The notes under the pieces were generated by a model that was given only the letters and a program-made list of their open reading frames with translations, did no database searches and was not told the DNA's origin. Both the position numbers and the translations under genes were made by a program. From contig CALVUX010000006.1 of the NCBI GenBank assembly GCA_944363715.1, positions 41,783-73,782 of the forward strand: a stretch of 32,000 bases of DNA, given 5' to 3'. Origin of the DNA: an uncultured Bacilli bacterium (GTDB lineage: Bacteria; Bacillota_I; Bacilli_A; RF39; UBA660). This document shows positions 17,546 through 32,000 of the stretch, one piece after another. Each line of letters starts with the position of its first letter. Position 1 is the first letter of the stretch.

Positions 17546-18424
17546 TTATATATTATTATTAAATTTATTTTCTATTTTATCTTGCGATTCAATATATTTA
17601 TAGTTTAAGTTATTATTTTTTGTGATTACTGATTCTCCTAGTTTTCTTTCAAGATCATCTCTAGCAACTTTAGCAGTATTACCACCCATTCTTGCTATTT
17701 TTTTATTTTGTTCTAAACCATAAGGCTTATGTTTTTTAGCAAGTTCTCTTGTTGCCGTTTCACCTAGGTCTGTTAAAAGAACTTCTATATCAGACATATT
17801 ATCTCTTAAAGATTCTTTACGAAGTCCTTTAAATGCTTTATATTCACTTGCTTTCATTCCAGACCATTCTTGATAAATTTCATTTGTTAGTATCCCATAT
17901 TCATAATTTTTAGTGATACCGCCATCTTTCCAAACATCAGTTAACCTTTTTCTATCAACAATTCCATCTAACCTATCTTTAATCCATTTATCACTATATC
18001 CTCGTTTTCTATAATAATCTACTGCCCTGTTAATAGCAATTTCAGGATCAAATACCTCATCTATTCTTTCACTACCTAAATTAGCAAGCCAAAGTTTAAA
18101 AGGTTCAGCTTTAGGACTGGGAACAGATTCAATTAATCTCAATATTCCTTTAGTATCTAAAGTGTCAGTTAAATAATTTTTCCCATCTTTTTTTGACTTC
18201 ATTTTGAGTTGGTTAGTATTACTAACCAACTGACTACCTTCTTCGTTTAGTTTATTTTTTAACCATTTCCAATAATTTCTAGATTTTTCGTAATCATTAT
18301 TTGTTAATGCACTAATAACATCAACAACACTAAAATAATATTCTTCTTTTTCATTATCCCAAATACTTCTTATTTCATTACCCTCAAAAAGATTTGATAT
18401 TGTTTCTAATTTGTTTTGACTCAT
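17546..18424 (-). CDS. Bro-N domain protein with a DinD-like C-terminal region
   Basis: The N-terminal pattern FEGNEIRSIWDNEKEEYYFSVVDVISAL...LIESVPSPKAEPFKLWL is Bro-N-like. AAGGAGG RBS. Confidence 0.7.
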   Translation of the reverse strand: MSQNKLETISNLFEGNEIRSIWDNEKEEYYFSVVDVISALTNNDYEKSRNYWKWLKNKLNEEGSQLVSNTNQLKMKSKKDGKNYLTDTLDTKGILRLIESVPSPKAEPFKLWLANLGSERIDEVFDPEIAINRAVDYYRKRGYSDKWIKDRLDGIVDRKRLTDVWKDGGITKNYEYGILTNEIYQEWSGMKASEYKAFKGLRKESLRDNMSDIEVLLTDLGETATRELAKKHKPYGLEQNKKIARMGGNTAKVARDDLERKLGESVITKNNNLNYKYIESQDKIENKFNNNI

Positions 18425-18436
18425 TTATTACCTCCT

Positions 18437-20026
18437 TTAAATTAACTTAAACTTATAATATATATCAATATTTTTTTCTTCATCTATCTCTATTCTATCA
18501 ATTAGTGAACTAATTAATGCACGAGATGGATTTTTCATCTCTAAAAATTCTTTAATTTTATCTAGATAAAAATTATCATTAGTTTCCCCATTATTTTCTA
18601 AATTATATAGAGCTCTTTCATATTCTAGTTTCTTTTTCTTTGATTCATTAATCTCTAGAGTCAAGTTGTTGTAAGTTCTCTTATACATTTCTAAAGTTAT
18701 ATTTCCCTCTAATTTATCATTATAGCAAATATCTATTTTTTTATTAGCATTTTCTATTGCGGTCTCTAATCTAAATATTTCTCCTTTAATACTATCTTTT
18801 TTCTTTTTGATTCTATCATTTGTTTTTAATATACTTTCAAGAGTTTTTTCATCTAAATATTTCTTTGCCATTTTTCGTAAATTATCTAAAACTATATTTT
18901 CTATAATTTGATATTTAATAGAATGAGGTGTGCATACATCTTGTTTTTTTCTTTTAGCCCAATAATTACAATTACCATAAATTCGGCTAACCTCTCCATA
19001 TTTTTTAGTTTGTTGTTTATGTTCTCTAAATCCAATCGTATGCTTACAATCTTTACAATATATTAAACCACGAAGTAAAAGTTTATCAGTTATGCCATTA
19101 CCTTTGCCACGATTTTTATTACTCTTAAACATTTCTTCGGCAAGTTCAAATGTTTCTTTAGCAATTATGGGTTCTACTGCACCAACTGATATAATCCAAT
19201 CATTTTCTTTATTATGAACTCTTTTTTTAGATTTGTAATTAACTTTCCTTTGACGACATTGTGTCAGATTTCCAATATAAGTTGGATTTTTAAGAATATC
19301 ATTAACTGTCCTCGTTGCCCAAACACCATAATGAACATTGTCTTGTCCTAACTTCATATTTTTTTGCATACTAGGTGTTGGTATATGTTCACTTGTTAAA
19401 GTGTCACATATTTTGCTTAAACTATCGCCACTTGTAAACATATCAAATATTCTTCTAACCACATTAGCAGATTCTTCATCAATTTCAAGTTTGTGCTTAT
19501 CTTCTTCATTCTTTTTATAGCCATAAGGAGCGTATGCTCCAACAAATAAACCATTTCGTTTTTTAGTATATAAAGAACTTCGGAGTTTATTTGATATATC
19601 TTTAACATACATATCATTAAAAGCACTTTTAAATACTAACATATCATTTGCTGAACTATCTCTTTTAAAAGTATCTACCCCATCATTAACTGCTACATAT
19701 CTAATGTTATGTTCTGGAAAATATCTTTCTACATAATAACCAAACTCAATATGGTCTCTACCTAATCTTGATGTATCTTTAGTTATAATCATATTTATTT
19801 TCTTTTCTTCGCAGTCTTTAATCATACGATTAAATCCTACTCTATCAAAAGTTGTTCCAGATACACCATCATCTATATATTCATCTACAAATAATAAATC
19901 ATTATCTCTAATATAATTTAAAAGCAAATCTCTTTGTGTAGAGATACTACCACTCTCACCTAACCTTTCATCTTCTCTAGATAATCTTAAATATATTCCT
20001 ACCTTATAGGTTGTGTCTGTTACCAT
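18437..20026 (-). CDS. Large serine recombinase (integrase)
   Basis: Resolvase catalytic domain (YLRLSREDE, SISTQR), recombinase domain, Cys-rich zinc ribbon (CKDCKH...CNYW...C) and a C-terminal coiled coil. 529 aa. Confidence 0.92.
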   Translation of the reverse strand: MVTDTTYKVGIYLRLSREDERLGESGSISTQRDLLLNYIRDNDLLFVDEYIDDGVSGTTFDRVGFNRMIKDCEEKKINMIITKDTSRLGRDHIEFGYYVERYFPEHNIRYVAVNDGVDTFKRDSSANDMLVFKSAFNDMYVKDISNKLRSSLYTKKRNGLFVGAYAPYGYKKNEEDKHKLEIDEESANVVRRIFDMFTSGDSLSKICDTLTSEHIPTPSMQKNMKLGQDNVHYGVWATRTVNDILKNPTYIGNLTQCRQRKVNYKSKKRVHNKENDWIISVGAVEPIIAKETFELAEEMFKSNKNRGKGNGITDKLLLRGLIYCKDCKHTIGFREHKQQTKKYGEVSRIYGNCNYWAKRKKQDVCTPHSIKYQIIENIVLDNLRKMAKKYLDEKTLESILKTNDRIKKKKDSIKGEIFRLETAIENANKKIDICYNDKLEGNITLEMYKRTYNNLTLEINESKKKKLEYERALYNLENNGETNDNFYLDKIKEFLEMKNPSRALISSLIDRIEIDEEKNIDIYYKFKLI

Positions 20027-20038
20027 TTCTACTCCAAT

Positions 20039-20194
20039 CTATAAGTTCGAGATTATATCGGTATTTATTATACCATTATTTTCGTATAAATTAAATTCTT
20101 TATCTAGAAAAGATGCTAAAAAATTACTTATTAATTCATTAAGTGTTATTCCATTTTCATTAAAAATATTATTTACTTTATATTCTTTTTCCAT
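20039..20194 (-). CDS. Possible 51-aa ORF upstream of the recombinase
   Basis: My own translation gives MEKEYKVNNIFNENGITLNELISNFLASFLDKEFNLYENNGIINTDIISNL. It fills the gap upstream of the recombinase on the same strand. No motif recognised. Confidence 0.3.
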   Translation of the reverse strand: MEKEYKVNNIFNENGITLNELISNFLASFLDKEFNLYENNGIINTDIISNL

Positions 20195-20327
20195 AGGGCA
20201 CCTCTATAAATGTATATGCACCTAAATTAATATTATTTTGTATAAGTTTGTCTATCTTCATTAAATACCTCCTTTGTCTAAATTTGCTGTTTTTTCTAAC
20301 ATATTACATTCAATCCTTTCTTCTTTT

Positions 20328-20747
20328 TTATTCAAACTCTTTTAGTAGTTCTTTCATTTCTTTTAATTCTTCTTCGGTTGGTGGAATAGATTCTTCTCTT
20401 TTACCATTCCAAACTTCTACACCATCTGGATCAATTCGTATATGAGGTCCACTTTTACCATTTATTAGTTCATTTTGATTATTAGCAATATCTATTACAG
20501 TAATAAAACTTTGTATGTTATTGTTAGTAATATAAGAATTAAGGTAACCTTTAATAAATACTTTAGTTCCTTTAACAAAAAAATCTTTATAGATCGTATA
20601 AAGATTTCGGTTAATATTTAAACTTGAATATATTTTTCTTTTATCATATTTTAAGGTAGTTAAACCAAACTTGATATAATCTTTATTATTATCTGTCACA
20701 TTATTTATAGTTCCAGATATTATTATCTCATTTAAATCAATTTCCAT
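20328..20747 (-). CDS. Hypothetical protein, possibly an OB-fold SSB-like protein
   Basis: AAAGGAG RBS. The pattern IIISGTI...F.L......I...N....Y..FFVKGTKVFIKGYL plus an acidic tail (EELKEMKELLKEFE) resembles single-stranded DNA-binding proteins. Confidence 0.45.
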   Translation of the reverse strand: MEIDLNEIIISGTINNVTDNNKDYIKFGLTTLKYDKRKIYSSLNINRNLYTIYKDFFVKGTKVFIKGYLNSYITNNNIQSFITVIDIANNQNELINGKSGPHIRIDPDGVEVWNGKREESIPPTEEELKEMKELLKEFE

Positions 20748-20889
20748 TTTTTGCTCCTTTCATTTTAATTTATTTAGTTATTTAAATTATTAAAATAATT
20801 TTAAATTTATATTATTTATTATAATTATTTATTAATATTATTTATTCTGTTAGAAGATTCTTGCTATTATATATAGCAAGATACTGCTA

Positions 20890-21171
20890 CTAACTATAGA
20901 AGATATTTGCTAAATATATTCTTCGTATATTAGGTTCATTTTCTACTTTAATATATTTTTTTCTTTTTAATGAAGTTATGCAACTTGTAATAGTTCTCTT
21001 TGATACTTTCATATGATTACTTAAATACCTATTATTCGCATAACAAAAACCCTCTTGCATAGTTAAAGTAGTGATTAATCCCATTAATAGTTTAGCAGTA
21101 GAAGAAACATCTTCATCTAATAGAACTATCATTGGTACTTGTACATATTTTAAATTACTTATATCTGTCAT
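20890..21171 (-). CDS. Small winged-helix/HTH protein
   Basis: AAAGGAGG RBS. YLSNHMKVSKRTITSCITSLKRKKYI is HTH-like, as seen in replication-module or regulator proteins of mobile elements. Confidence 0.55.
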   Translation of the reverse strand: MTDISNLKYVQVPMIVLLDEDVSSTAKLLMGLITTLTMQEGFCYANNRYLSNHMKVSKRTITSCITSLKRKKYIKVENEPNIRRIYLANIFYS

Positions 21172-21203
21172 ATTATCGTCCTCCTTTCCTTATTTTTTTA
21201 AAC

Positions 21204-21230
21204 AAAAAAACTTGTAAAATATCTTACAAG
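21204..21230 (-). terminator. Rho-independent terminator (minus strand)
   Basis: CTTGTAA (21211-21217) pairs with TTACAAG (21224-21230). On the minus strand it is followed by seven T (plus-strand A-run 21204-21210). Confidence 0.6.
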
Positions 21231-21386
21231 TCATACCGATATAAACTACAAAAAGGCAATACTAACCCAGAGACCTTATTTTAAATCCTGTCTCTAGGAT
21301 TGAAGTATTTTAGTCTTATAGACTAGGTTCTAATATAAATCTACGAACATTTACTGAACCTTTATTTGTTAGCGATTTAATCTTTT

Positions 21387-21704
21387 CTAACAAAACTCGT
21401 ATGTGTATAATCCTCTGCTATATTCAATGAACTTTATATATTTATTATCTTCTAATATTTGTAAGTTCTTTTTGAATCCAACATTTGTTATACTTAAGTG
21501 ATTTTGAACTCTACCTATACTTATGCTTGTGAACTTACTTCTTTGTGATTGTTCTGCACAAAGTATTTTGTATATAAGTTTAGTTTCAAACTTTATATTC
21601 TTGTCTTTCCATATCTTTGGATTAATTAATTCTAGTTGTTTGTTCTTCGACATACATTTGATTTCCTCCCTTCCTGTATTCAATAATTGTTTTATTGTGT
21701 ACAT
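21387..21704 (-). CDS. Hypothetical small protein (possible wHTH)
   Basis: 105-aa ORF divergent from the XRE repressor gene, in the position of a cro/excisionase-like partner. Start uncertain (21704 or the internal Met at MSKNKQ). Confidence 0.5.
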   Translation of the reverse strand: MYTIKQLLNTGREEIKCMSKNKQLELINPKIWKDKNIKFETKLIYKILCAEQSQRSKFTSISIGRVQNHLSITNVGFKKNLQILEDNKYIKFIEYSRGLYTYEFC

Positions 21705-21783
21705 CTGTACTCACTGACAAATTAATCTTAACATAGTAAATACTAACCTGTCAATACTTTTTTATTCATATTTTGCATTTTTG

Positions 21784-21812
21784 TTGACTTTTGTACTCAT
21801 TTGGTGTATGAT
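21784..21812 (+). promoter_or_regulatory. Sigma-A promoter of the XRE repressor gene
   Basis: TTGACT (21784-21789), 17-nt spacer, TATGAT (21807-21812). This places the transcription start after the tracked ATG 21815 and supports ATG 21833 as the start codon. Confidence 0.6.
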
Positions 21813-21832
21813 TAATGTGTGAGGTGAAAAAA

Positions 21833-22333
21833 ATGTCTAGTGATAAAACTATTGGTGAAGTAATTGCCGAAGCTAGAGAAGAAAAAAATCTATCTCAAAG
21901 ACAACTTGCAAAACTTGCTGGAATTAATAGTTCAGGTTTATCTAAAATAGAAGCAGGAGAAAGAGACCCTAGTCCTAAAATATTAAGAAAGATAAGTAAA
22001 TATATTGATGTTAATTATAATGATTTAATGTATAAAATGGGATTAGGTATTGAAGTTAGTCCATTAAATCCTTTTATTAAAGACTATTATTCTAACTTAA
22101 AAGGAAATGAATTAAATGAGGCAGAAATTAATGTTTTAGGTAATAAACAAAATTTAGAAAAATTAGTTTTATCTTGTGAAGAAAAACTAAAAGATAAAAA
22201 CATATTAGAAAGCGAAAAAGATTTATTACTACACACTATTGAAGATACAAATTACCAAATTAATACACAACAAGAAATAATAAACTTAATTCAAAGTTTA
22301 AAAGTAAAGGAGAGAAATAGAAATGCGAAATAG
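21833..22333 (+). CDS. cI-like XRE-family repressor
   Basis: HTH_3 motif LSQRQLAKLAGINSSGLSKIEAGERDPS. GAGGTG RBS before ATG 21833. Divergent arrangement with a small minus-strand gene. Confidence 0.85.
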   Translation: MSSDKTIGEVIAEAREEKNLSQRQLAKLAGINSSGLSKIEAGERDPSPKILRKISKYIDVNYNDLMYKMGLGIEVSPLNPFIKDYYSNLKGNELNEAEINVLGNKQNLEKLVLSCEEKLKDKNILESEKDLLLHTIEDTNYQINTQQEIINLIQSLKVKERNRNAK

Positions 22334-22751
22334 AAAAATATTAAATATTTTAGTTATACTATTATGTATATTTGTTATAGTAAGTTTTGTATTAACACAA
22401 ACTATTGCAACTGAATATTTTAAGAATATGTTTTGGGTTGCTAGTATGTTTCTTATGTGTGGTGTATTATTAGATCTTAATGCGTGGAGCAAATTAGGAT
22501 TAGATGTTGATAAAAACAAATCAAAAACTATTAGGAGAGGTTTTGATGATAGTACAACATTATTAGTTGTTTTTTATGGTAGTTTACTTTTAATAATTGT
22601 ATTTTTTAATCAGTTTAATAACGAAGTAATGAAAAACAACTATGTCATAATCGGATACTTTATTATGACAATAGAATTTGTATTATTTAATTATCTATCA
22701 ATATGGAATGCTAAAAAAGATACTATTAAATTATTAAAGGATAATAAATAA
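22323..22751 (+). CDS. Integral membrane protein (about 4 TM helices)
   Basis: Four hydrophobic segments. AAAGGAG RBS. The start overlaps the stop of the repressor gene. Confidence 0.7.
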   Translation: MRNRKILNILVILLCIFVIVSFVLTQTIATEYFKNMFWVASMFLMCGVLLDLNAWSKLGLDVDKNKSKTIRRGFDDSTTLLVVFYGSLLLIIVFFNQFNNEVMKNNYVIIGYFIMTIEFVLFNYLSIWNAKKDTIKLLKDNK

Positions 22752-22760
22752 TACAAAAAA

Positions 22761-22804
22761 ATAGCCTTTTACCTTTTCGTTAGATTAGGTATTAGGCTAT
22801 TTTT
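22761..22804 (+). terminator. Terminator of the XRE/membrane-protein operon
   Basis: ATAGCCT (22761-22767) pairs with AGGCTAT (22794-22800), with an inner ACCT/AGGT pairing, followed by TTTT. Confidence 0.5.
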
Positions 22805-22809
22805 CATAT

Positions 22810-22871
22810 AAGAATGCGTGGCAAGTTTTGTTGCTTTAGCAATGAAATTGGCGATAGCATTCTTCTTTTTT
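22810..22871 (+). terminator. Second long hairpin plus T-run
   Basis: AAGAATGC (22810-22817) pairs with GCATTCTT (22857-22864), followed by C and TTTTTT (22866-22871). Confidence 0.4.
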
Positions 22872-22897
22872 ATGAAACGTAAGTTGAAATAAAAAAG

Positions 22898-22944
22898 GCA
22901 CTATATTACTACATATCATAAATACATACATAGTAATATAGTGC
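22898..22944. repeat. Perfect 14-bp inverted repeat
   Basis: GCACTATATTACTA (22898-22911) and TAGTAATATAGTGC (22931-22944) with a 19-nt loop, read directly. Confidence 0.85.
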
Positions 22945-22976
22945 TTGACTGGGGTTTCAAAAGGGTTCTCCCTTTG

Positions 22977-23044
22977 CACACTATTCCTAGATGGCTTGTC
23001 CATCTTGGTAGTGTGTTACTATCTTGTCTTAAAGATAGTTTTTT
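22977..23044 (+). other. Compound stem-loop carrying a TAGTGTGTTA motif, followed by a terminator hairpin
   Basis: CACACTA (22977-22983) pairs with TAGTGTG (23009-23015), with an inner AGATGG/CCATCT stem. Then ACTATCTT (23018-23025) pairs with AAGATAGT (23032-23039), followed by TTTTT. Confidence 0.6.
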
Positions 23045-23092
23045 ATGGAATTTTAATTAGATATAGAGATTATTTTATATTTCATAAATTGT

Positions 23093-24673
23093 CTATCTTG
23101 TTTTTCCCTTTGATTCTATATTCATTTCATATGAATATAGTCTGTCTAATTGTTCAGGTGTAATGTGAATCACTTTCCCACCTTTCGGATTAATTCTTTC
23201 TCCACCAAATACTATCCATATTGCATCAAGTGGCATATCTGGCATTGAAGCTTCTCCATCAGTAAATATTATTTTATTTTCTACTCTTCTTGAAAAAGCA
23301 CCTACAGCAACATCAAAATCAGTTCCTCCACCACCTTCAAATCGCATATTTTCTATATCTTCTTCTGTTCTAATTTCATGAAATCCATAAAATTCTGTAT
23401 CAAAACATCCTACTTTTAATTTAGTATGTTGTAATATATTCTTACATTCTCTTAAAAAGTTCTTTAATAATACTTCATTTATTGAACCACTTGTATCAAG
23501 AACAATTTCAGTTTCTGGCATTGGTTGCTCTTCTAAATTAGCAGTAACAACTCCATCTTCTAATGTAGCATTTTTATATGACCAATCTACATCATATTTA
23601 ATTGCTTCTCTCAAAACATATCGCCAATCAACTATTGGTTTTGCAATACCAATATCATTAACTGTTCTAACATCTCTATTTGTTGAAGTTCCTGCTTGTG
23701 ATGCTTGTTTAGAAATTGCTTCTTTTAATTCTTCAAGTTGCTTTTTCTTATCTTCAAGATTTTTCTTAAAAGCATCTTTTTCTCCCATGCTCTCAAGTTC
23801 TTCTTGTTTCTTTTCTAGTTCATTCTTTTCTTTTTCTTTTGTATCTTTTCCTAAAAGTTTATCTAATAAGCTCTCTTTTTTATCAGATTTTTCTTGCTGC
23901 TTTTTGTGCTTTTTAACTGCTTGCTCCCACATACTATGAGTATCATGTCCAACATCTTGCTTTGATTTATCTTCTTCTTGTAAATCTTTTCCAGAGTCAC
24001 CACCGCTTTGTTCTTGGGATTGCTTATCTTGTTCTTGTGAATTTCCACTATTAGAACTATTTTGTTGTTGAGATTGTTGCTGTTCATCTCCACTTTGTCC
24101 TGCTCCACTATCTTGTTTCTGGTCTTCTTGATTTTGGGAATCGCCAGTTTGTTGTTGTGATTGAGATTGTTGTTGACCATTTTCGCCTTGACTACTACCA
24201 CTGCTTTGTTGTTGATTTTGTTGCTGATTACCTTGTTTACTTTGACTATTACCTTGTCCATTTTGTTGTTGTCTTTGTTGTTTTTCTTGTAATAGTTTGT
24301 CATATAACTGTTCAGCATCGTAATTAATAGCTTCTGCCATATCAACACCCCCCAGAGCCATTTTTAATCCGTCTCGTTTTAAAAACTGATTAATAACACC
24401 ATCTGTAGCAATATTCCATAACTCTGGATCTTTGCCTTCACTTCTTAAGATATGATTAAATGCAATATGACATACTTCATGAGCAAATATAAAAGTTTGT
24501 TCTTCAACACTTAAACTTTCTAAATATTTTGGATTATAGTAAATTGTTTCTCCATCTGTACCTGCGGTTAGTATATCTTTGTTTTCTTTATAATCTACAC
24601 TTGCTACTACACTCCCAAAAAAGGGATATTTAACAAGCATTTTTCTTTTTAATGCTGCAATATCATATTTCAT
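23093..24673 (-). CDS. Metallopeptidase-like (DUF2201_N-type) + VWA-domain protein with a long low-complexity linker
   Basis: N-terminal FAHEVCHIAFNH (HExxH). Roughly 200 aa of Q/S/E/K-rich linker. C-terminal VWA-like domain with a MIDAS-type VLDTSGS. GAGG RBS before ATG 24673. Confidence 0.85.
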   Translation of the reverse strand: MKYDIAALKRKMLVKYPFFGSVVASVDYKENKDILTAGTDGETIYYNPKYLESLSVEEQTFIFAHEVCHIAFNHILRSEGKDPELWNIATDGVINQFLKRDGLKMALGGVDMAEAINYDAEQLYDKLLQEKQQRQQQNGQGNSQSKQGNQQQNQQQSSGSSQGENGQQQSQSQQQTGDSQNQEDQKQDSGAGQSGDEQQQSQQQNSSNSGNSQEQDKQSQEQSGGDSGKDLQEEDKSKQDVGHDTHSMWEQAVKKHKKQQEKSDKKESLLDKLLGKDTKEKEKNELEKKQEELESMGEKDAFKKNLEDKKKQLEELKEAISKQASQAGTSTNRDVRTVNDIGIAKPIVDWRYVLREAIKYDVDWSYKNATLEDGVVTANLEEQPMPETEIVLDTSGSINEVLLKNFLRECKNILQHTKLKVGCFDTEFYGFHEIRTEEDIENMRFEGGGGTDFDVAVGAFSRRVENKIIFTDGEASMPDMPLDAIWIVFGGERINPKGGKVIHITPEQLDRLYSYEMNIESKGKTR

Positions 24674-24683
24674 AACTTATACC

Positions 24684-25076
24684 TCAAATTCGTGCAACTA
24701 ATGAGAATATTTCTTCATTTATCTTATCTTTATTTATTTCGTTTGCTGTTACAATTATCACACAACTTTTTGGTAATTCAAATGTAGATATTTTTCTATG
24801 TTCTAACAATTCACAGAATTTTAATTGTTCTTCTTTTGCTATTGCATCAATTTTATCAATCACTAAAATTTTACTTGCATTTGTACTTAATATTTCACTA
24901 AGCCATTTTGGTGGCATAAAATCAGTTCCATCATAATGACCATTTAACTCTTTAACATCAACATTGGCAGGTAATACAACAGCACCATTTATATCTTTAC
25001 CAAATATAAAATCAACTAAAATTGGTGCAACATTTGCTCTTATATATGATAGTAATATTTCTTTCTTATCTCCCAT
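24684..25076 (-). CDS. Small degenerate AAA-like protein (no P-loop)
   Basis: KILVIDKIDAIAKEEQLKFCELLEHRKISTFELPKSCVIIVTAN parallels the Walker-B to sensor-1 region of the upstream ATPase, but no GxxxxGK[ST] motif is present. Its start overlaps the upstream stop as TAATG (25074-25078). Confidence 0.6.
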   Translation of the reverse strand: MGDKKEILLSYIRANVAPILVDFIFGKDINGAVVLPANVDVKELNGHYDGTDFMPPKWLSEILSTNASKILVIDKIDAIAKEEQLKFCELLEHRKISTFELPKSCVIIVTANEINKDKINEEIFSLVARI

Positions 25077-26998
25077 TATCTTCTTATACCTCCTTCTGAC
25101 ATTTCAGCAAGTTTTACTTCTGCAAGTCTTTCTAATTTACTTTCATCGCCATGTGTCCATAAAGCATCAAAAATCGCCCCAAACTCTGCTCCTAATCCTG
25201 TAACAAAACCTCTTACTTTTTCCAAGTTGTTATCATCAACTTGTGATAATCCCATAGTTGTTGCATATCTTTCTGCTGTATTTAATGCTTGTATGTCTCT
25301 TTGGGTATAATTTTCATTTATTACATCATCTAGTGTTATAACTTGTTGATTACAAAATTGTACAAATTCTCTTGTTATATCCTCTCCTACTAATGCTCTT
25401 AACATTTCTGGACTTCCTGTTGCGTATAACATTTTAGAAGCCATTTCCCATTTTCTTGGATCTGCATTAGGTTTTTCACCATCATATTTACTTCTTAATG
25501 TTTCGCCTTTTTTATAAGCAATATATGAATAAATAGCAGGGTGTATATTATGTTCACTTGCCCATTTTAACCAACTTTCAGCAGTTGTTTTAATATAAAC
25601 ATGAGCAAATCTATTAAATAATGGTTCTGCTAATTGATTTGCCGCTAATGAATCTTTCATATCATTTCCTGCTGCAACAATTCTTGCATTATCTGGTAAT
25701 TTCCAAATACCATTAACTTCTCTATCTAATACTATATTAAATGCTATACCTTGAATACTTGGTAGTGCATTTGTAATTTCATCTAAAAATACAATATGAA
25801 ATCTATCTGGCTCTTTTTCGCATTTTTCTTCTAATTTTTTTAACCAACTTGGCTTAACATCAATCATCTCACCTGTTGCTTGATTGTAAACACTTTTACC
25901 ATTTAAACTTTCTGGTGTCGCATTTCTTAGATAAATAATTACACAATCAGGATCTATTTGTTTTACCCTTGCAGATTTACCTTCTGATGAAGGGCCATGC
26001 AAGAATACTGCTATACCACTTTCTATTGCACCCTTAATAATTTCTTCTTCACTAACTTGTCCAAATTTTAAACCATAAGGATTTCTTCTTTTTTCAGCTT
26101 GTTTTCTTTCTTCTTCAAATTGAGTTTTTTCTTCTGGTGTCATATCTTGAATACGAGTAAATGTTGCTGTTTGAGTCAAATCGCGTATCATATATCTATC
26201 AAGATATTCCTTCATTTCTGTTCTACTAAAATCACCTTTATAATTATGATTTCTATCAAGAAATCTTATTCCAGAAACTAACCCTAATTTTGATACTAAT
26301 ATTCCTGTTCTATCATCAATTAACCATTTTACAGGCGATACTTCTACCCAAACATAATCGCCATCTCTATATTTAACACCATTTGAAAGTTTAAATTTAT
26401 TTCCACCAAAATCAGAATTTGCTCTTATACGAATATATCTCTTTCCTTGATATTCATATTCTTCATAAGTTACTGGTTTGAATCCTGTATCATAATCATC
26501 ATATTTTACTGAATCAAATGTATAACTTCTTCCGGTTTTATTCATTCCTCTATTATATTCTGATTCTAATATACTTTGCATTCTTGAATCAGCAGCATAT
26601 TGTGGATATTCTCCATATTCTACTTCTTCAGTTCCGTTGTATCCCCTCACTCTGTTCGGGAAGATTTGAGAAAATATTACAGAAGATTGCAAAGCTGGGC
26701 GAACAACACCATTGCGTGCGTAGCTATATAAGCTGCTCCTATAACCATCCTTATTGACCGCGCGGACATCATTATCGTTATCATCAGATCTAGTCCAAAA
26801 CCAACTAGTTCTGCCTTTTAAAGAACTATCTTCATTAATATTATAATCTGTATCTTCGCATAAATAGCTACCTGTCAATACACATAAATCTGTGATTGCA
26901 GCTTTTGTTCCATACTTTCTTATTACTTCTAATTGAGATTCTTTATTATTACCCCAAATTTGTCCTTCCGACAATAAAGTTAAATCTTGATTATTCAT
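25076..26998 (-). CDS. DGR target protein: N-terminal VR-bearing domain fused to a MoxR/AAA_5-type ATPase
   Basis: Start placed at ATG 26998 (MNNQDL), 8 nt after GGTGA. No signal peptide. The VR encodes VRAVNKDGYRSSLYSYARNGVVRPAL. ATPase motifs: GPSSEGKS (Walker A), IVFLDEI (Walker B), VAAGN (sensor 1) and LFNRF. Confidence 0.85.
   Translation of the reverse strand: MNNQDLTLLSEGQIWGNNKESQLEVIRKYGTKAAITDLCVLTGSYLCEDTDYNINEDSSLKGRTSWFWTRSDDNDNDVRAVNKDGYRSSLYSYARNGVVRPALQSSVIFSQIFPNRVRGYNGTEEVEYGEYPQYAADSRMQSILESEYNRGMNKTGRSYTFDSVKYDDYDTGFKPVTYEEYEYQGKRYIRIRANSDFGGNKFKLSNGVKYRDGDYVWVEVSPVKWLIDDRTGILVSKLGLVSGIRFLDRNHNYKGDFSRTEMKEYLDRYMIRDLTQTATFTRIQDMTPEEKTQFEEERKQAEKRRNPYGLKFGQVSEEEIIKGAIESGIAVFLHGPSSEGKSARVKQIDPDCVIIYLRNATPESLNGKSVYNQATGEMIDVKPSWLKKLEEKCEKEPDRFHIVFLDEITNALPSIQGIAFNIVLDREVNGIWKLPDNARIVAAGNDMKDSLAANQLAEPLFNRFAHVYIKTTAESWLKWASEHNIHPAIYSYIAYKKGETLRSKYDGEKPNADPRKWEMASKMLYATGSPEMLRALVGEDITREFVQFCNQQVITLDDVINENYTQRDIQALNTAERYATTMGLSQVDDNNLEKVRGFVTGLGAEFGAIFDALWTHGDESKLERLAEVKLAEMSEGGIRR
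26689..26768 (-). repeat. DGR variable repeat (VR)
   Basis: 80-nt gapless match to 28293-28372 with 10 mismatches, all opposite template adenines (minus strand). It lies in frame inside the target CDS. Confidence 0.9.
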
Positions 26999-27063
26999 TT
27001 TTATCATCACCACATCTATATTTTACCATATGAAATCATTTTTTCTTACTATTTTTGCGAATT

Positions 27064-28092
27064 TTATATTTTTTTATCTAAATTGGATAATAATTTGTCC
27101 ATACTCTTTTCATTAGAATGTTTTAAATGTGCTTTAAAAGCGTTAATTCTCATACCAACATATTCTTCATCAATTACGGATTTATCTTTAAGTTTTCTTA
27201 TGGTTTTAATATGTTTTCTCATTCTCTGCTTAGATGAAAACCTAAGTTTTCTAATAACCTTACCACTATTTGTTAAAATATGATTAAAACCTAAAAAATC
27301 AATTCCATTATATGCAAGTCCTATTTGTGTTTTTTGATTAAGTTCCAAATCTAATTTTTCAATACAAACTTTATTTATTTTTTCTAAACAATATTGTAAA
27401 TACTTTTTATCACGATGAAGTAGAATAAAATCATCCATATATCTTACGTAACTTTTAATTTGCAATTCTTCTTTGATCAATCTATCAATTCTATCAAGAT
27501 AGTATAAAGCAAACCATTGACTTGATTGATTACCTAATGCTAACCCCCTTTCTAAATTATCAGGTTGTTCGTTTATAATTTTTTTTATAAACCAAAATTC
27601 ATCATCTGTAAAGTCAATCCTTTTTAGATTATTTATTAAAATATTATGGTTAATACTAGGAAAATATTTGCGAATATCACATTTCAAATAATAGACTTTA
27701 TTATCATTATTCTTAAAATATTCTTTTTGCAAAAAATATTTCAATCTATCCATTCCATATTTTGTTCCTTTGCCTTTTCTACAAGCAACATTATCATTTA
27801 TTAGTTTTTTTTCAATCTTTGGAATTAAAACATTATCGCAAAAACATCTTAATACAATTCTATCTCTATATGGAAGAGCTTGTATTAATCTTTCTTTTGG
27901 TTCATATATTATAAATTCCTTATATTTTCCTACTTTATATTTCCTTGATATTATTTCTTTTTGTAATTTATAAATATTCTCTGAAATGTTTACTTCAAAT
28001 CTTATAATTTCACCTTTATGTTGTTTTGATCTTCTACATTTTTTATGTGCATCATATAAGTTTTCAAAGCTAAATATATTTTCTAAATTCAT
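27064..28092 (-). CDS. DGR reverse transcriptase
   Basis: ATG 28092 (MNLENIFSFENL) follows GGTGGTGA. RT motifs include LGNQSSQ (DGR-type [ILV]GxxxSQ) and YMDDFILL (YxDD). At 342 aa it has no maturase or endonuclease extension. It lies immediately 3' of the TR. Confidence 0.92.
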   Translation of the reverse strand: MNLENIFSFENLYDAHKKCRRSKQHKGEIIRFEVNISENIYKLQKEIISRKYKVGKYKEFIIYEPKERLIQALPYRDRIVLRCFCDNVLIPKIEKKLINDNVACRKGKGTKYGMDRLKYFLQKEYFKNNDNKVYYLKCDIRKYFPSINHNILINNLKRIDFTDDEFWFIKKIINEQPDNLERGLALGNQSSQWFALYYLDRIDRLIKEELQIKSYVRYMDDFILLHRDKKYLQYCLEKINKVCIEKLDLELNQKTQIGLAYNGIDFLGFNHILTNSGKVIRKLRFSSKQRMRKHIKTIRKLKDKSVIDEEYVGMRINAFKAHLKHSNEKSMDKLLSNLDKKI

Positions 28093-28292
28093 ATAATCAC
28101 CACCAAAAAAGTGCCCCTTTTTAACCTTCAAAAATACATACATATCGTTGTTGGTGTGAGCACTAAAATCTATCCACCGCACTATTATAGCGGTTAGAAA
28201 AGTAAATAATTCCTTTGCTTTAAAGTACTGATATATTTTACTTAAAATATATTTCTCTGACCTGTTTTTTAGATTTTATAATCTCTTCAAAA

Positions 28293-28372
28293 GCAAATCT
28301 GGGCGAACAACACCATTGCGTTTGTATCTATATTTGTTGTTCCTATTACCATTCTTATTGACCGCGCGGACA
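28293..28372 (-). repeat. DGR template repeat (TR)
   Basis: Intergenic copy between the Avd-like gene and the RT. Read in the VR frame it gives the Asn-rich VRAVNKNGNRNNKYRYKRNGVVRPDL. Confidence 0.9.
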
Positions 28373-28384
28373 AAGACAAAGCCC

Positions 28385-28418
28385 TGCGCCAAAGGCGCAA
28401 AACTAGCAATGCCGCTAG
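28385..28418 (-). other. Two GC-rich hairpins between avd and the TR
   Basis: TGCGCC-AAA-GGCGCA (28385-28399) and CTAGC-N6-GCTAG (28403-28418). They are conspicuous in AT-rich DNA and may be part of the DGR RNA. Confidence 0.5.
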
Positions 28419-28462
28419 AATAAATTATTTACTTAATTAAAAACCTTTCGGTTTAAAATCCT

Positions 28463-29050
28463 TTAATTATTTGTACGACTGTTCCATCTAGAATCGTCGC
28501 TTTTCTTCCATGCAGCTATTAAGTTAATAGATTCACCAATTTGAATAGAGATTTGTTTAAATTGCCTAGATAAAATACAATTTGAATTTTCTGCTACCAT
28601 TGAAATATATCCTAGCATTTTTAACTTTACTATTGCATCCTTTTGATATTCTTCTCTCTTTTTTTTATTATCTAAGCAATCTATTCTTACAAAATTTGCT
28701 TGTAAAAGCAACTCTAATATTTCTAATGATAAATTTTGCATGCGATTAACAAACACCCCTCTATATTTAGCTGGAGATTTTTCAGTAACTGCAATTATAT
28801 AAGCTCCTAATTTTTTTACAACTGTAATAACCATTAAATCATTTGCATTAAATGGAATCTTTTCAATTCTTTCTAATTCACCATCTTTTTCAATATTTTC
28901 TTTTACTTTATTCTTATTAAATTTTTGATTATTTGCTGTTGCCAGAGCTTGTTTTACTGCAACTTTGTCATCAACACTATTTAAATTATCAATAGTATTT
29001 TCTAATGTTTTTGGAACTTTAAGATTGTTGGTTCTACTAACTTGTAACAT
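28463..29050 (-). CDS. avd: Avd-like accessory variability determinant with an N-terminal extension
   Basis: The C-terminal ~125 aa (KSPAKYRGVFVNRMQNLSLEILELLLQAN...KMLGYISMVAE...INLIAAWKKS) fit the four-helix-bundle Avd pattern. The gene sits directly 5' of the TR. Start placed at ATG 29050. Confidence 0.7.
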   Translation of the reverse strand: MLQVSRTNNLKVPKTLENTIDNLNSVDDKVAVKQALATANNQKFNKNKVKENIEKDGELERIEKIPFNANDLMVITVVKKLGAYIIAVTEKSPAKYRGVFVNRMQNLSLEILELLLQANFVRIDCLDNKKKREEYQKDAIVKLKMLGYISMVAENSNCILSRQFKQISIQIGESINLIAAWKKSDDSRWNSRTNN

Positions 29051-29172
29051 CAAATCACGCCCTTTTCTATATAAATATAACTTAATTACAATATAAAGCA
29101 CTTCCATAGTATTAGAAGTGTCTTAAAAAGGTAGATTTAGGTACTGCTAACTACTACTTATATATTTTATTT

Positions 29173-29661
29173 TTAATTGTTTAAAAAATAACTTACAACT
29201 GATAGTTCTAAAACTATCCACAATATTGTTTTTCTAATATTTTTTTCCTCAATCAAATTACTTATACAATATTCTTTTACATATGAAATTTTTACAGGTA
29301 ATTTAATCTTTCTACCATTTATACCAATTATTTTTAAAATCAAATCAGACGCTATACAACTGCCTTCTTCAAAAATAGCCCCATTTTCTTCTTTATTATC
29401 ATAAAAAAATTCAGTTACATCATCAACTAATCTATTATTTTCTCTAAATTTATCTACCTTACTACTTTTCTGTATTTCTTCTAATTTTGCATTAATTAAT
29501 TGTTCTAATACATTTTCTACTTCTTCATTAGATAAGTTATTTAATGAAGAAGTAAGTTCTTCTAAATCATAATAATATTTGATTGAGGTAATAATTTTAA
29601 TTTTGTCATCTAAAATTTCTGATATTTTTTTTACATATTCATTTAAATTTTCTTTTTTCAT
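29173..29661 (-). CDS. Hypothetical protein with a C-terminal hydrophobic segment
   Basis: AAGGAG RBS lies 6 nt before ATG 29661. No motif recognised. Confidence 0.55.
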   Translation of the reverse strand: MKKENLNEYVKKISEILDDKIKIITSIKYYYDLEELTSSLNNLSNEEVENVLEQLINAKLEEIQKSSKVDKFRENNRLVDDVTEFFYDNKEENGAIFEEGSCIASDLILKIIGINGRKIKLPVKISYVKEYCISNLIEEKNIRKTILWIVLELSVVSYFLNN

Positions 29662-29769
29662 ATCTAGCTCCTTTTTCTTTACTTTATTATTATAACATAT
29701 TTTCAACGAATAGCATTCGGTTTTTTAGTTAAATTAATATTTAATGGGAAAATATTATTGGTGATAACT

Positions 29770-30219
29770 ATGTTTGATAATAATATAAGATATTGTAGAG
29801 AAGAATTAGAGATGACACAAGCTGAACTTGGTTATATATTTGGAGTATCAGATTCAGCTGTTCGCTCTTGGGAAACTGCCCATGACTCTATACCATTACC
29901 AAAACTTATTAAATTTTGTAATATGTATGATTATTCATTGGATTTCGTATGTGGTTTAATAAGAAATAATATTAAATATGGGAAATTTACAACTGACAAA
30001 ATTAAAATAAGTAAAAAACTAAAAGAATTAAGAAACAAATTAGGAATTTCCCAACAAAAATTATCTGATGATTGCAAAATTTCACAAACTACTTATAGTG
30101 GTTATGAAACAGGTAACTATTTAATTAACACAACGAATTTATACTATATATGTAAAACCTATAATGTATCAATGGATTGGGTAGTTGGTAGAACGAATAA
30201 TTCTAAAATTAATAGATAA
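29770..30219 (+). CDS. XRE-family regulator with two tandem HTH domains
   Basis: MTQAELGYIFGVSDSAVRSWE and ISQQKLSDDCKISQTTYSGYE modules. GGTGA RBS before ATG 29770. Same architecture as 11662-12108. Confidence 0.8.
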   Translation: MFDNNIRYCREELEMTQAELGYIFGVSDSAVRSWETAHDSIPLPKLIKFCNMYDYSLDFVCGLIRNNIKYGKFTTDKIKISKKLKELRNKLGISQQKLSDDCKISQTTYSGYETGNYLINTTNLYYICKTYNVSMDWVVGRTNNSKINR

Positions 30220-30258
30220 AAAGCGAGAGTATGCTATAAAAATAACATATTCTCGCTT

Positions 30259-30654
30259 TTATAGTATATTTAATGAATAATAATAGTCATATACATTTAA
30301 TTGATTATTAACTTTAATATTAATTTCATTATTATTAAAATCATATTGAAAAATATTAAATAACATTTCAACAGAAAACTTTTGTTTTTCCAATAATGAT
30401 AATTCCATATGCTTTGCTGAAATAAATAGTAGATTATTATATTTAGCAGAGTTGGTGATTAACTTTTTAGAGTTAGGATCAAGTATTAATAATACTTCTT
30501 GAAATAACTTAATAAAATTATCAATATTATAGTTTGGTACAAATCCTAAATTTTCAAATAAATTTATTGCTAATCTAACTTTATCAATACCACTTAACTT
30601 ATCTACCATATTAACTAATGTTATAACATTTTCAGTATTATTACTTAATAACAT
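30259..30654 (-). CDS. Hypothetical protein
   Basis: 131-aa ORF with an AAAGGA RBS. No motif recognised. Confidence 0.5.
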   Translation of the reverse strand: MLLSNNTENVITLVNMVDKLSGIDKVRLAINLFENLGFVPNYNIDNFIKLFQEVLLILDPNSKKLITNSAKYNNLLFISAKHMELSLLEKQKFSVEMLFNIFQYDFNNNEINIKVNNQLNVYDYYYSLNIL

Positions 30655-30830
30655 AATATCATCCTTTCTTTTTTTGTCATTTAAGGCAATTTATTTTAAG
30701 ATACAGATAAGATATTAAGCCTTACATTAAAACTCCAATATAGGCGATTTAATAGGGTTAAATATCTTTTTTTCTGTACTTATATTTATCACTCTAAAAA
30801 GTAAAAAAATCAATACTATTTTTTATCTTT

Positions 30831-32000
30831 TTATCTACTTAAATCAAAGTCATCAGATTTCTCATAATCTTTTTCTAATTCATCTATATCCTTAACTCTT
30901 GTTTTTAAATAATCTGGTGCCTCTATATAATCAAATAATTCATCTTGTTTAGTTGTTCCTCTAGATATTTTAATTACATCATTCATATCAAAATCATTAT
31001 TATCATAATAATCTTTAACTTCAAGAGTTGTTTCGTCTTTTGCCTTTTCATTACCAAATTGTAATATCTTTCTAAAAAATTTTTTAATTGCTTCTAATAT
31101 TGCTTCAATATAGGTTCTTAATTTATTATTTTCATCAGTCAAGGTTTGATTTCTAGTAGTAAGAGATTTAACTTCTTTTTTTAAATTTGTATTTTCTTTT
31201 TCTAGTATTTGATGACTTTTAGTAAATGTTTTTACTTCATTAAATAATTGTTCTATTTTAGGTTGAAATTCTAATACTTTTTTAGTTTCTTTAATAACAT
31301 TATTCATAGATTCAAAGGTTTCGTTTTTAACCTTAATATATTCATTACCAAAAATAGTATTTTTACTAGATTTCATTTTATCATTTAAATCGCTTATGGC
31401 TTGTTCTAAATTTTTATTAATAGTTTCCACTTTATTTTCATAATATCTGGTTGTTTTCTTTAATTCTTTTGTTTTTAAATGTTCTCTACCACTTCCTTTA
31501 ATACCTCTTTCTAAATCAAATCCTTTTTCAGTTAATCGTTCGTGATACTTATCTTGTAATTGAGATAGATGTATTTTATCTTTTATAAATTGCTTTTTTG
31601 ATATTGTCCATCTTTCAGTATTAGTTCTTTTATCTAATTTTTTAACAAGTGGTACTACTACACAATGAATATGTGGTGATTTTTCATCTAAATGAATAGT
31701 CGCGTGAAGTATTTGTTCTTTCTTATAACCTAAATCATTATAAACAAACTCCATACAAGTATTTGCCCACTTCATTAAATGATCATTACTCATATTTTCA
31801 AAGAATTTAGGTGAAGCAGTAAATAATAATTCATCTGCTACACAATTTCTTGATTGATTAAGCATTTGAGTATAACTTCTTTGTCTTTCTTTTCTTTCAG
31901 TTTTTTGTTTTTCATTATGTTGTTTTTCATACTCTTTTGTTATCTCTTTAAATCTTTTAACATATTTATAATTTAATGGTACTAATTCTAAATTTTTATA
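30831..32000 (-). CDS. mob: MOBV-family (Mob_Pre) relaxase, 5' end outside window
   Basis: HLDEKSPHIHCVVVP matches the HxDE...PHxH relaxase motif. Long C-terminal coiled coil. The frame stays open upstream of the tracked Met to base 32000 (...YKNLELVPLNYKYVKRF...). Confidence 0.85.
   Translation of the reverse strand, partial: YKNLELVPLNYKYVKRFKEITKEYEKQHNEKQKTERKERQRSYTQMLNQSRNCVADELLFTASPKFFENMSNDHLMKWANTCMEFVYNDLGYKKEQILHATIHLDEKSPHIHCVVVPLVKKLDKRTNTERWTISKKQFIKDKIHLSQLQDKYHERLTEKGFDLERGIKGSGREHLKTKELKKTTRYYENKVETINKNLEQAISDLNDKMKSSKNTIFGNEYIKVKNETFESMNNVIKETKKVLEFQPKIEQLFNEVKTFTKSHQILEKENTNLKKEVKSLTTRNQTLTDENNKLRTYIEAILEAIKKFFRKILQFGNEKAKDETTLEVKDYYDNNDFDMNDVIKISRGTTKQDELFDYIEAPDYLKTRVKDIDELEKDYEKSDDFDLSR

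Follow-up and report, generated by a model that had tools for sequence, protein, structure and literature searches.

A diversity-generating retroelement that targets the N-terminal module of a MoxR-like ATPase in gut Bacilli

This analysis concerns a cassette of five genes in a 32,000-nucleotide stretch of DNA from an uncultured Bacilli bacterium of the RF39 group (GenBank assembly GCA_944363715.1, contig CALVUX010000006.1, positions 41,783 to 73,782 of the forward strand), which we refer to as the window. The five genes follow one another in the same direction on the minus strand and, together with a template repeat (TR), occupy 6.1 kb (Table 1). The first two, between which the TR is located, encode an Avd-like accessory protein and the reverse transcriptase (RT) of a diversity-generating retroelement (DGR). 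The third gene, which we call the target, carries the variable repeat (VR) and encodes a protein in which an N-terminal module (N-module) is fused to a MoxR-like AAA+ ATPase. It is followed by an open reading frame (ORF) for a protein of 130 amino acids and by the gene for a peptidase-VWA protein, the partner. We refer to the last three genes as the trio. An earlier note on this DNA, made from the sequence alone, had proposed that the target is a cytoplasmic MoxR-type ATPase diversified by a DGR and that the locus is a conflict system. Here we describe the cassette, the activity of its DGR in natural populations, its relatives in other genomes and the functions that it might serve.

Table 1. 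Coordinates of the cassette, its parts and two genes of the surrounding mobilizable element (positions in the window)
Feature	Position	Strand	Remarks
Whole cassette (avd-TR-RT-target-130aa-VWA)	23094..29231	minus	block common to the window and the chromosomal relatives L001-L006 (blastn)
Avd-like accessory gene	28463..29107	minus	longest ORF 214 aa; phrog_3206 'Avd protein of DGR' 1.2e-13
GC-rich stem-loop	28380..28404	minus	8 nt upstream of TR; 11-bp stem, 6 GC pairs (terminator-like scan)
Template repeat (TR)	28293..28372	minus	80 nt, 27 adenines, between avd and RT; encodes VRAVNKNGNRNNKYRYKRNGVVRPDL
DGR reverse transcriptase	27064..28182	minus	ORF 372 aa; likely start near Met31
Target gene	25076..27013	minus	645 aa from first GTG; N-terminal variable module fused to MoxR-like AAA+ ATPase
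N-terminal (putative) recognition module	26159..27013	minus	aa 1-285; VR-bearing small alpha/beta subdomain, beta-rich subdomain, helix
Variable repeat (VR)	26689..26768	minus	target aa 82-108; 80-nt match to TR
AAA+ ATPase core and helical C-terminal region	25079..26056	minus	aa 320-645
130-aa degenerate AAA+ core paralogue (predicted)	24684..25076	minus	start overlaps target stop by one base (TAATG)
Partner protein	23093..24673	minus	526 aa; starts 10 nt after 130-aa ORF
Large serine recombinase	18437-20026		part of integrated mobilizable element in window
Mob_Pre (MobV) relaxase	30831-31865		part of integrated mobilizable element in window

The features that mark membership of the DGR class are present in the cassette: a DGR-type RT, differences between TR and VR that are confined to adenines, an Avd gene and traces of homing in nature. 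The RT matched phrog_1423 (E = 7e-106) and Pfam RVT_1 (2e-15), and the motifs LGNQSSQ and YMDD can be read in its translation; its nearest relative among deposited phages is the RT of phage nd12, at 42% identity. The Avd-like ORF also matched the curated models NF033474 (3.6e-5) and Pfam bAvd (1e-4), in both cases under the curated cut-off, and since the Avd domain spans only residues 88-207 of the ORF, the true start of the protein may be internal. TR and VR differ at 10 of their 80 nucleotides, and every one of these mismatches falls at one of the 27 adenines of the TR, the upstream copy, which is the defining signature of a template and variable repeat pair. Neither a second VR nor a further copy of the TR was found within the window. 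The last 22 nucleotides of the VR (26689-26710) encode GVVRPAL, and an A-to-C difference within these codons, near the 3' end of the VR, is constant across all loci compared. These 22 nucleotides would serve as the initiation of mutagenic homing (IMH) sequence, and the constant difference fits the expected boundary between IMH and IMH*. The stem-loop that precedes the TR, which is GC-rich in otherwise AT-rich DNA, may be a structural part of the DGR RNA.

The DGR of the window is complete and has recently been active in natural populations. Among 120 homologues of the target from gut metagenomes (91-98% identity), the mean column entropy was 1.14 bits at residues 81-100 and at most 0.27 bits in each other 20-residue block of the protein. 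Variation was almost confined to residues 87-103, with up to 13 residue types per position between 87 and 101. Likewise, the window and a second locus (L009) have identical TRs and VRs that differ at 14 sites. In six loci whose RT is intact, TR adenines accounted for 67 of the 69 mismatches between TR and VR, and the adenine-confined pattern was also seen in nine related loci. Meanwhile, the cassette has met a different fate in a common chromosomal lineage of the gut (L001-L006), where the identical gene set occupies another site, flanked by an ABC/FtsX transporter and an AMP-binding gene. The alignments of these loci to the window by blastn covered exactly 23094-27741 and 27984-29231, positions 27742-27983 being absent. 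The trio is intact there, the RT is shortened by 242 bp and the TR is gathering non-adenine differences, so that this copy of the DGR looks dead.

What is being diversified is the N-terminal part of the target. Homologues of the target begin at Met3 or Met6 in the numbering used here; the earlier note had counted from Met6 (ATG, 26998), and hence the residues 77-103 to which it had assigned the VR are residues 82-108 here. Its placing of the VR near the N-terminus was borne out. In an AlphaFold2 model of the full-length protein, built from a 55-sequence alignment (mean predicted local distance difference test [pLDDT] score 78.7), the N-module was confidently folded at residues 8-280 (pLDDT ~90) and was followed by a disordered linker (residues 282-320) and then by the alpha/beta ATPase with its helical C-terminal region. 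The VR formed strands at residues 83-86, 92-95 and 106-109 (pLDDT 80-91). A model of the N-module on its own was poorer, with the VR at a pLDDT below 50, and its best match in a Foldseek search of the PDB and BFVD had E = 0.07.

The fold of the VR-bearing domain, which the earlier note had expected to resemble that of C-type lectins (CLec), could not be confirmed. The window target scored 18.3 bits against Pfam DUF6273 (cut-off 23.5), over profile positions 112-168 only, that is, the last third of the model; several relatives have a precomputed match to this family (PF19789), and one (P0221) scores 26.3 bits. The DGR of phage nd12 diversifies a DUF6273 receptor-binding protein (tentaclin), and tentaclins are extracellular proteins with immunoglobulin-like domains (PMC10743442). 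The tentaclin loci of phages nd4 and nd12 have in common with the cassette the order RT then target, a VR towards the 5' end of the target and the scaffold WW.R...VR.V..G...GVRP. The similarity between the nd12 tentaclin and the window target, however, extends over only ~45 residues around the VR and is statistically weak. Because of the weakness of this similarity, and because Foldseek returned no significant neighbour, we leave the CLec fold unconfirmed. A match of the N-subdomain profile to propellers of the pyrroloquinoline quinone type (the 'Scone' designed proteins) was rejected; its stretches were individually insignificant (i-Evalue ~60), and we therefore took it to be an artefact of summing over repeats.

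The three products of the trio are cytoplasmic in character. Neither the target nor the partner has a signal peptide or a transmembrane (TM) segment, as judged by inspection of the N-terminus and by hydrophobicity, in which no 19-residue window was TM-like, and the 130-amino-acid protein likewise lacks a TM-like segment and an N-terminus resembling a signal peptide. The absence of both features from the VR-bearing ORF had been inferred in the earlier note.

The ATPase half of the target matched phrog_1297 ('ATPase') with an E-value of 2e-47 over residues 324-613. It has a Walker A motif (GPSSEGKS) at residue 340 and a Walker B motif (IVFLDE) at residue 407, and AAGN and LFNRF, for the sensor-1 Asn and the Arg motif, can also be read in the translation. 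When its model was compared with solved structures by Foldseek, the top matches were chains of NorQ, an ATPase of the MoxR class (E = 2e-7, target-normalised TM score 0.41-0.45), followed by MCM and NtrX. Sequence searches with the target and with the family profile against solved structures, MoxR proteins included, gave no match. As for Pfam AAA_5, the window target had no match at E<=0.01, and 5 of 25 diverse relatives did match, the best at 3e-6. Thus, the assignment to the MoxR type made in the earlier note is upheld by the motifs, by phrog_1297 and by the NorQ fold, but the AAA_5 hidden Markov model (HMM) is not reached by the window protein. 'MoxR-like' is a fair description, for which fold and context count for more than family models do. 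The Walker A motif is degenerate in several relatives in one of our alignments (A2), where it reads, for example, GYSSTAKI or GDTVIVRF. Some of the motor paralogues, especially those in tandem targets, are therefore probably dead as ATPases.

The 130-amino-acid ORF showed no significant similarity to the target by BLASTP, and a comparison of profiles was therefore needed. By hhalign, its family matched the ATPase core of the target with a probability of 97.8% (E = 1e-12); the P-loop region is deleted and the lid domain is absent. On this comparison the ORF is a paralogue of the ATPase core, predicted to be catalytically dead, in keeping with the claim of the earlier note that the target is coupled by TAATG to an AAA-like ORF without a P-loop. 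The partner, in which a combination of an HExxH domain with a metal ion-dependent adhesion site (MIDAS) VWA domain had been noticed, indeed matched DUF2201_N (6e-38) and DUF2201 (1e-13) in an HMM search, both over the gathering scores, as well as phrog_1314 (3e-67). It consists, in order, of a gluzincin-type HExxH domain (residues 8-183), a low-complexity linker of ~215 residues rich in Q, S, E and K, and a VWA domain (residues 390-504). The motif HEVCH is at residue 65, within DUF2201_N, and the MIDAS motif DTSGS is at residue 393, within the VWA domain of DUF2201. The HExxH region weakly matches the minimal gluzincin selecase MJ1213. The linker is ~23% glutamine, and its DNA (window 24003-24290) consists of imperfect direct repeats. 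Relatives of the partner range from 403 to 528 amino acids in the gene calls seen, and the linker probably expands and contracts among them. A full-text literature search found no functional study of DUF2201 proteins.

The target belongs to a large family. Searching 1.84 billion cluster representatives exhaustively, we obtained 8013 relatives at E<=0.001, of which 635 reached E<=1e-30, and dozens of the matched clusters span the full length of the target at 36-60% identity. We also scanned bacterial and archaeal contigs, one genome per species, and found 221 stretches that encode relatives; we retained 76 loci. Nearly all came from uncultured gut Bacilli or from metagenome-assembled genomes labelled 'Tenericutes'; examples are Coprobacillus sp. 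CAG:605, Clostridium sp. CAG:417, Candidatus Faecisoma and, as a further case, a 1.46-Mb chromosome. In nearly every locus of sufficient length the target is followed by the 130-amino-acid paralogue and then by the VWA protein, and the 130-amino-acid gene is missing in the most distant group of loci only. Conservation of the neighbourhood of avd, RT, ATPase and VWA genes, which the earlier note had proposed to test, holds for the trio but not for the retroelement: Avd and RT are both present at only 12 of the 76 loci, with RT alone or fragments of it at six more, and adenine-biased repeats were found only at loci with an RT. In a tree of the ATPase domain, loci with and without a DGR are interleaved, and all five genes of the cassette are found together again in loci whose targets are 50-57% identical, from which we conclude that the association with the DGR is old or has arisen repeatedly and has been lost many times. 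Given that the trio is widespread, chromosomal and mostly without a DGR, the DGR is an addition to a machine that existed before it.

The two halves of the target have evolved at very different rates. Mean pairwise identity among 79 family members was 0.85 for the ATPase core and 0.73 for the C-terminal region, as against 0.45 for the first subdomain of the N-module, 0.37 for the VR segment and 0.52 for the beta-rich subdomain; the N-module is hypervariable even where there is no DGR. It is also prone to duplication. Tandem target paralogues, often two to four, are found upstream of a single pair of 130-amino-acid and VWA genes, as in L032, L039 and L083, which have arrays of up to four targets before one such pair. 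(In L039 the VR is identical in all four copies, perhaps through recent duplication or through an artefact of assembly, and L083 has a second, more distant pair of ATPase and DUF2201 genes 4 kb downstream.) In relatives of ~900 amino acids, among them P0122 and the product of L085 10001-12688, the N-module is duplicated at the C-terminus to give the order N-module, ATPase, N-module, and an ordinary second target paralogue comes next. Ten other architectures that contain the N-module were scanned with Pfam and were uninformative except for one fusion to DUF4116. A determinant of specificity that faces changing ligands would be expected to look like this: a module that evolves fast, can be duplicated, is targeted by a DGR and is attached to a conserved motor.

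These rates, and the genomic surroundings of the trio, bear on the explanation that the trio is a housekeeping MoxR-VWA maturation chaperone in the manner of NorQD, CbbQO and RavA-ViaA, with an N-module that binds a client and a DGR that is an often-lost passenger tuning the binding. NorQ is the nearest solved fold, most loci have no DGR, PADLOC matches none of the three proteins, and in several genomes the trio is found among ribosomal, tRNA-synthetase and DNA-repair genes. Its surroundings differ from genome to genome, DGR-less examples being located at tyrS / rpsO-pnp, at rplQ / ispH-ligA and at FtsX / AMP-binding. A fixed client, however, does not explain why the binding module is conserved to only 37-52% when the motor has a mean identity of 85%, nor is a candidate client gene conserved beside the trio among the neighbours that we surveyed. 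The tandem arrays, the differing insertion sites, the carriage on a mobilizable element and the repeated association with a hypermutation device in relatives as distant as 50% identity would likewise go unexplained. We consider a housekeeping chaperone unlikely.

Relatives of two of the three genes are found in phages. A pair consisting of a MoxR protein and a peptidase-vWA protein in jumbo phages has been proposed to act as chaperone and cochaperone in virion assembly (Iyer et al. 2021, PMC7824862). The families of this pair, phrog_1297 and phrog_1314, are encoded by adjacent genes and are homologous to the ATPase core (2e-47) and the partner (3e-67) of the window. By tblastn, matches were obtained in 605 phage records, and phages of the N4-like, rV5-like and jumbo kinds commonly carry the pair. 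The phage ATPases, at ~350-380 amino acids, have no N-terminal module, and the pair is accompanied by neither a 130-amino-acid paralogue nor a DGR, whereas the window cassette is cellular. In Vibrio phage SBP1, which is N4-like (L087, 2314-5056), an HNH endonuclease gene lies between the genes for the MoxR-like ATPase and the metallopeptidase-VWA protein; this may explain the label 'HNH endonuclease' of phrog_1314, apparently a mislabel for the peptidase-VWA family.

The homology of the phage pair raises the alternative of a cryptic prophage, for which the cassette would supply a chaperone and protease of virion assembly, the role put forward for the jumbo-phage pair (PMC7824862), or else a receptor-binding protein under diversification. 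That the RT is nearest to that of a gut phage, nd12, and that one contig of IMG/VR has the cassette are both in line with this alternative. But no capsid, tail or baseplate genes were found beside any of the 76 loci or in the window, and phage structural genes were also absent from 149 neighbouring ORFs. Moreover, the N4-like phage that we examined has its pair beside helicase and DNA polymerase genes, in the replication region rather than the structural region. Secretion signals are absent, and the VR domain forms one polypeptide with an ATPase, which must be cytoplasmic. A role in virion assembly or adsorption is thus highly improbable, and on genomic context and the fusion to the ATPase we rejected the reading of the target as a phage tail or receptor-binding protein. 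Phage-tail context and secretion signals, which the earlier note had named as findings that would speak against its proposal, were not found.

In the window, the cassette is carried by an integrated mobilizable element, which looks to take up the right half (17546-32000) and which encodes, besides the recombinase and relaxase of Table 1, a Bro-N protein and several helix-turn-helix (HTH) regulators. Searches of plasmid and phage collections for near-identical DNA returned none, and a promoter scan of the AT-rich window was uninformative, since shuffled sequence gave more sites than the real one. Ordinary chromosome makes up the left 17 kb, with genes for CorA, FTHFS, thymidylate kinase, a ClpB-like protein and a CtpA-type protease. 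This part also encodes a 498-amino-acid protein unrelated to the cassette (6856-8352), whose thioester (TED) domain and SpaA-type prealbumin-fold domains suggest a covalent adhesin. A locus with 97% identity (L007) is likewise flanked by a Mob_Pre gene. From such carriage and from the differing chromosomal positions of its relatives, the cassette appears to move between genomic sites. Thus, the earlier description of a compact, fused version on a mobilizable element is correct in that the genes of such an element are present, but elsewhere the trio is mostly chromosomal and free of a DGR.

Carriage of this kind would also accord with a machine that serves the element rather than the cell, for example through the removal of the host's defence proteins or the exclusion of competing elements, in parallel to the MoxR-like ATPase and metallopeptidase-VWA pair of lytic phages. 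In an N4-like phage the homologous pair, which has no N-module, lies beside the helicase and DNA polymerase genes, and the matches of the cassette to the phage profiles are strong. We regard such a weapon as rather improbable. Most relatives are chromosomal, with no mobile-element genes nearby, and the Pfam content of their neighbourhoods is mostly mixed housekeeping, with few integrases or recombinases. Furthermore, the family defined by the N-module is nearly absent from viral contigs (one locus, cassette included, in the 2.9 million of IMG/VR), and the N-module had no match in deposited phages.

The closest described systems are the vWA-MoxR-VMAP systems linked to DGRs, in which the variable domain, of the FGS/CLec type, is at the C-terminus of the vWA protein and a separate VMAP carries the effector; some of their DGR targets are predicted to be cytoplasmic, and a role as sensors of invaders has been proposed (Kaur et al. 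2020, PMC7159879; Dore et al. 2024, PMC10907252). Such systems, to which the earlier note had pointed by way of Kaur et al., have in common with the cassette a binding domain that a DGR diversifies and that is linked with a peptidase, a vWA protein and an AAA+ ATPase of the MoxR type. They differ in that the variable module of the window is at the N-terminus of the ATPase itself, the peptidase is a gluzincin fused to the vWA domain, a dead AAA paralogue is added and there is no VMAP. The hosts differ as well, being small-genome gut Bacilli for the cassette and cyanobacteria or Chromatiales for the known systems. Hence the link holds in so far as DGR-linked MoxR-vWA systems are on record (PMC7159879), but the cassette is not a member: we rejected membership of the VMAP ternary class, since the VR is in the ATPase gene and no VMAP-type Pfam match was found among the three non-DGR genes.

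A second parallel is offered by CPR (candidate phyla radiation) bacteria, where, as far as the descriptions cited here extend, DGR targets match a Midasin-type AAA ATPase domain ('Midasin' UVR4 targets, Wu et al. 2018, PMC5758913; a 2017 study via PMC10907252). In these bacteria, too, a DGR variable domain and an AAA-type ATPase are joined in one polypeptide in a reduced genome. By the same descriptions, however, the variable region of the CPR targets is C-terminal and no metallopeptidase-VWA partner is reported. The lineage of the RT also appears to differ, the closest deposited RT to that of the cassette being from a gut phage.

The trio also resembles BchI/BchD, CobS/CobT and NorQ/NorD, in each of which a partner with a VWA domain and a MIDAS accompanies an active AAA+ ring from the same broad clade. 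In BchD of Mg-chelatase, a charged linker joins a dead AAA domain to a VWA domain, a layout that is mirrored by the 130-amino-acid ORF and the linker and VWA domain of the partner. These pairs insert metals into fixed clients, in contrast to the cassette, and have neither a hypervariable domain nor a peptidase. In a full-text literature search we found no description of the architecture of the window cassette. We would place the cassette with the DGR-diversified, NTPase-coupled putative sensors, as what appears to be a new architecture within them.

Taking these results together, we favor the reading that the cassette encodes an intracellular machine of variable specificity that recognizes a ligand and remodels or proteolyses it, and that it is probably related to conflict, although we regard this reading as evenly poised between right and wrong. 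The cassette has two layers. The older is the three-gene machine, made up of a MoxR-like ATPase with an N-module, a dead paralogue and a partner in which a predicted zinc metallopeptidase domain and a VWA domain are connected by a long, probably disordered linker, and spread across uncultured gut Bacilli. The second is the DGR, which rewrites about 26 adenine-templated positions in a hairpin-like segment of ~27 residues in the binding module. In the mechanism that we infer, the ATPase would assemble into a ring that displays multiple variable modules, like the N-domains of other AAA+ rings, and the VWA domain would dock the peptidase onto this ring, possibly through the dead AAA paralogue, as in NorQ/NorD, CbbQ/CbbO and BchI/BchD. 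Capture of a cytoplasmic ligand by the variable module would lead to ATP-driven remodelling, after which the ligand would be cleaved or the cleavage of another protein triggered. Since the binding site is deliberately hypermutated, the ligand would most likely be a changing foreign protein of a phage or mobile element, and such a ligand would in turn point to a conflict system of programmable specificity. A bolder version, which we think possible but doubtful, is that the trio is a previously unrecognised and widespread immune system and that its DGR version is an anticipatory receptor ring that feeds foreign cytoplasmic proteins to its own protease.

Several findings weigh against a role in conflict. 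Classical MoxR-VWA pairs are maturation chaperones and not immune systems. Most relatives have no DGR, and the RT is deleted by 242 bp in one common lineage, so that continued diversification is evidently dispensable. Many relatives sit between housekeeping genes, and the VR-bearing domain has no tie to a known ligand-binding fold. Searches of PADLOC-DB 2.0 with the target, the 130-amino-acid ORF and the VWA protein gave no match at E<=0.01. The co-occurrence with defence islands that the earlier note had suggested looking for was not seen either: among 149 neighbouring ORFs at 60 loci, defence genes were limited to four C5-methyltransferases and to matches with generic HTH and control-protein models, and these do not amount to a clear defence neighbourhood. 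The features that the earlier note had observed are all present, and we regard its interpretation as partly supported: the anatomy is upheld throughout, and the putative role of the locus as a conflict system is compatible with the hypervariable N-module, the arrays and the mobility of the cassette.

To our knowledge, experimental work on DGR targets has almost exclusively concerned extracellular binding proteins, and the idea of cytoplasmic DGR sensors wired to an NTPase has so far come from comparative genomics in organisms that are difficult to manipulate. The five genes of the cassette described here take up 6.1 kb. The cassette is abundant in metagenomes of the human gut, is naturally active and has its variable site directly on the motor, beside a protease-like partner. 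Being small, abundant and active, it is a tractable system in which to ask whether hypermutation serves recognition inside the cell. Through it, moreover, a large uncharacterised family of thousands of proteins comes to light in gut Bacilli that are themselves poorly known. Should our proposed mechanism be true, the target could provide a scaffold for evolving ATP-driven binders or degraders, and if the immune reading is true, the cassette would be a compact, clonable example of programmable intracellular protein recognition in bacteria.

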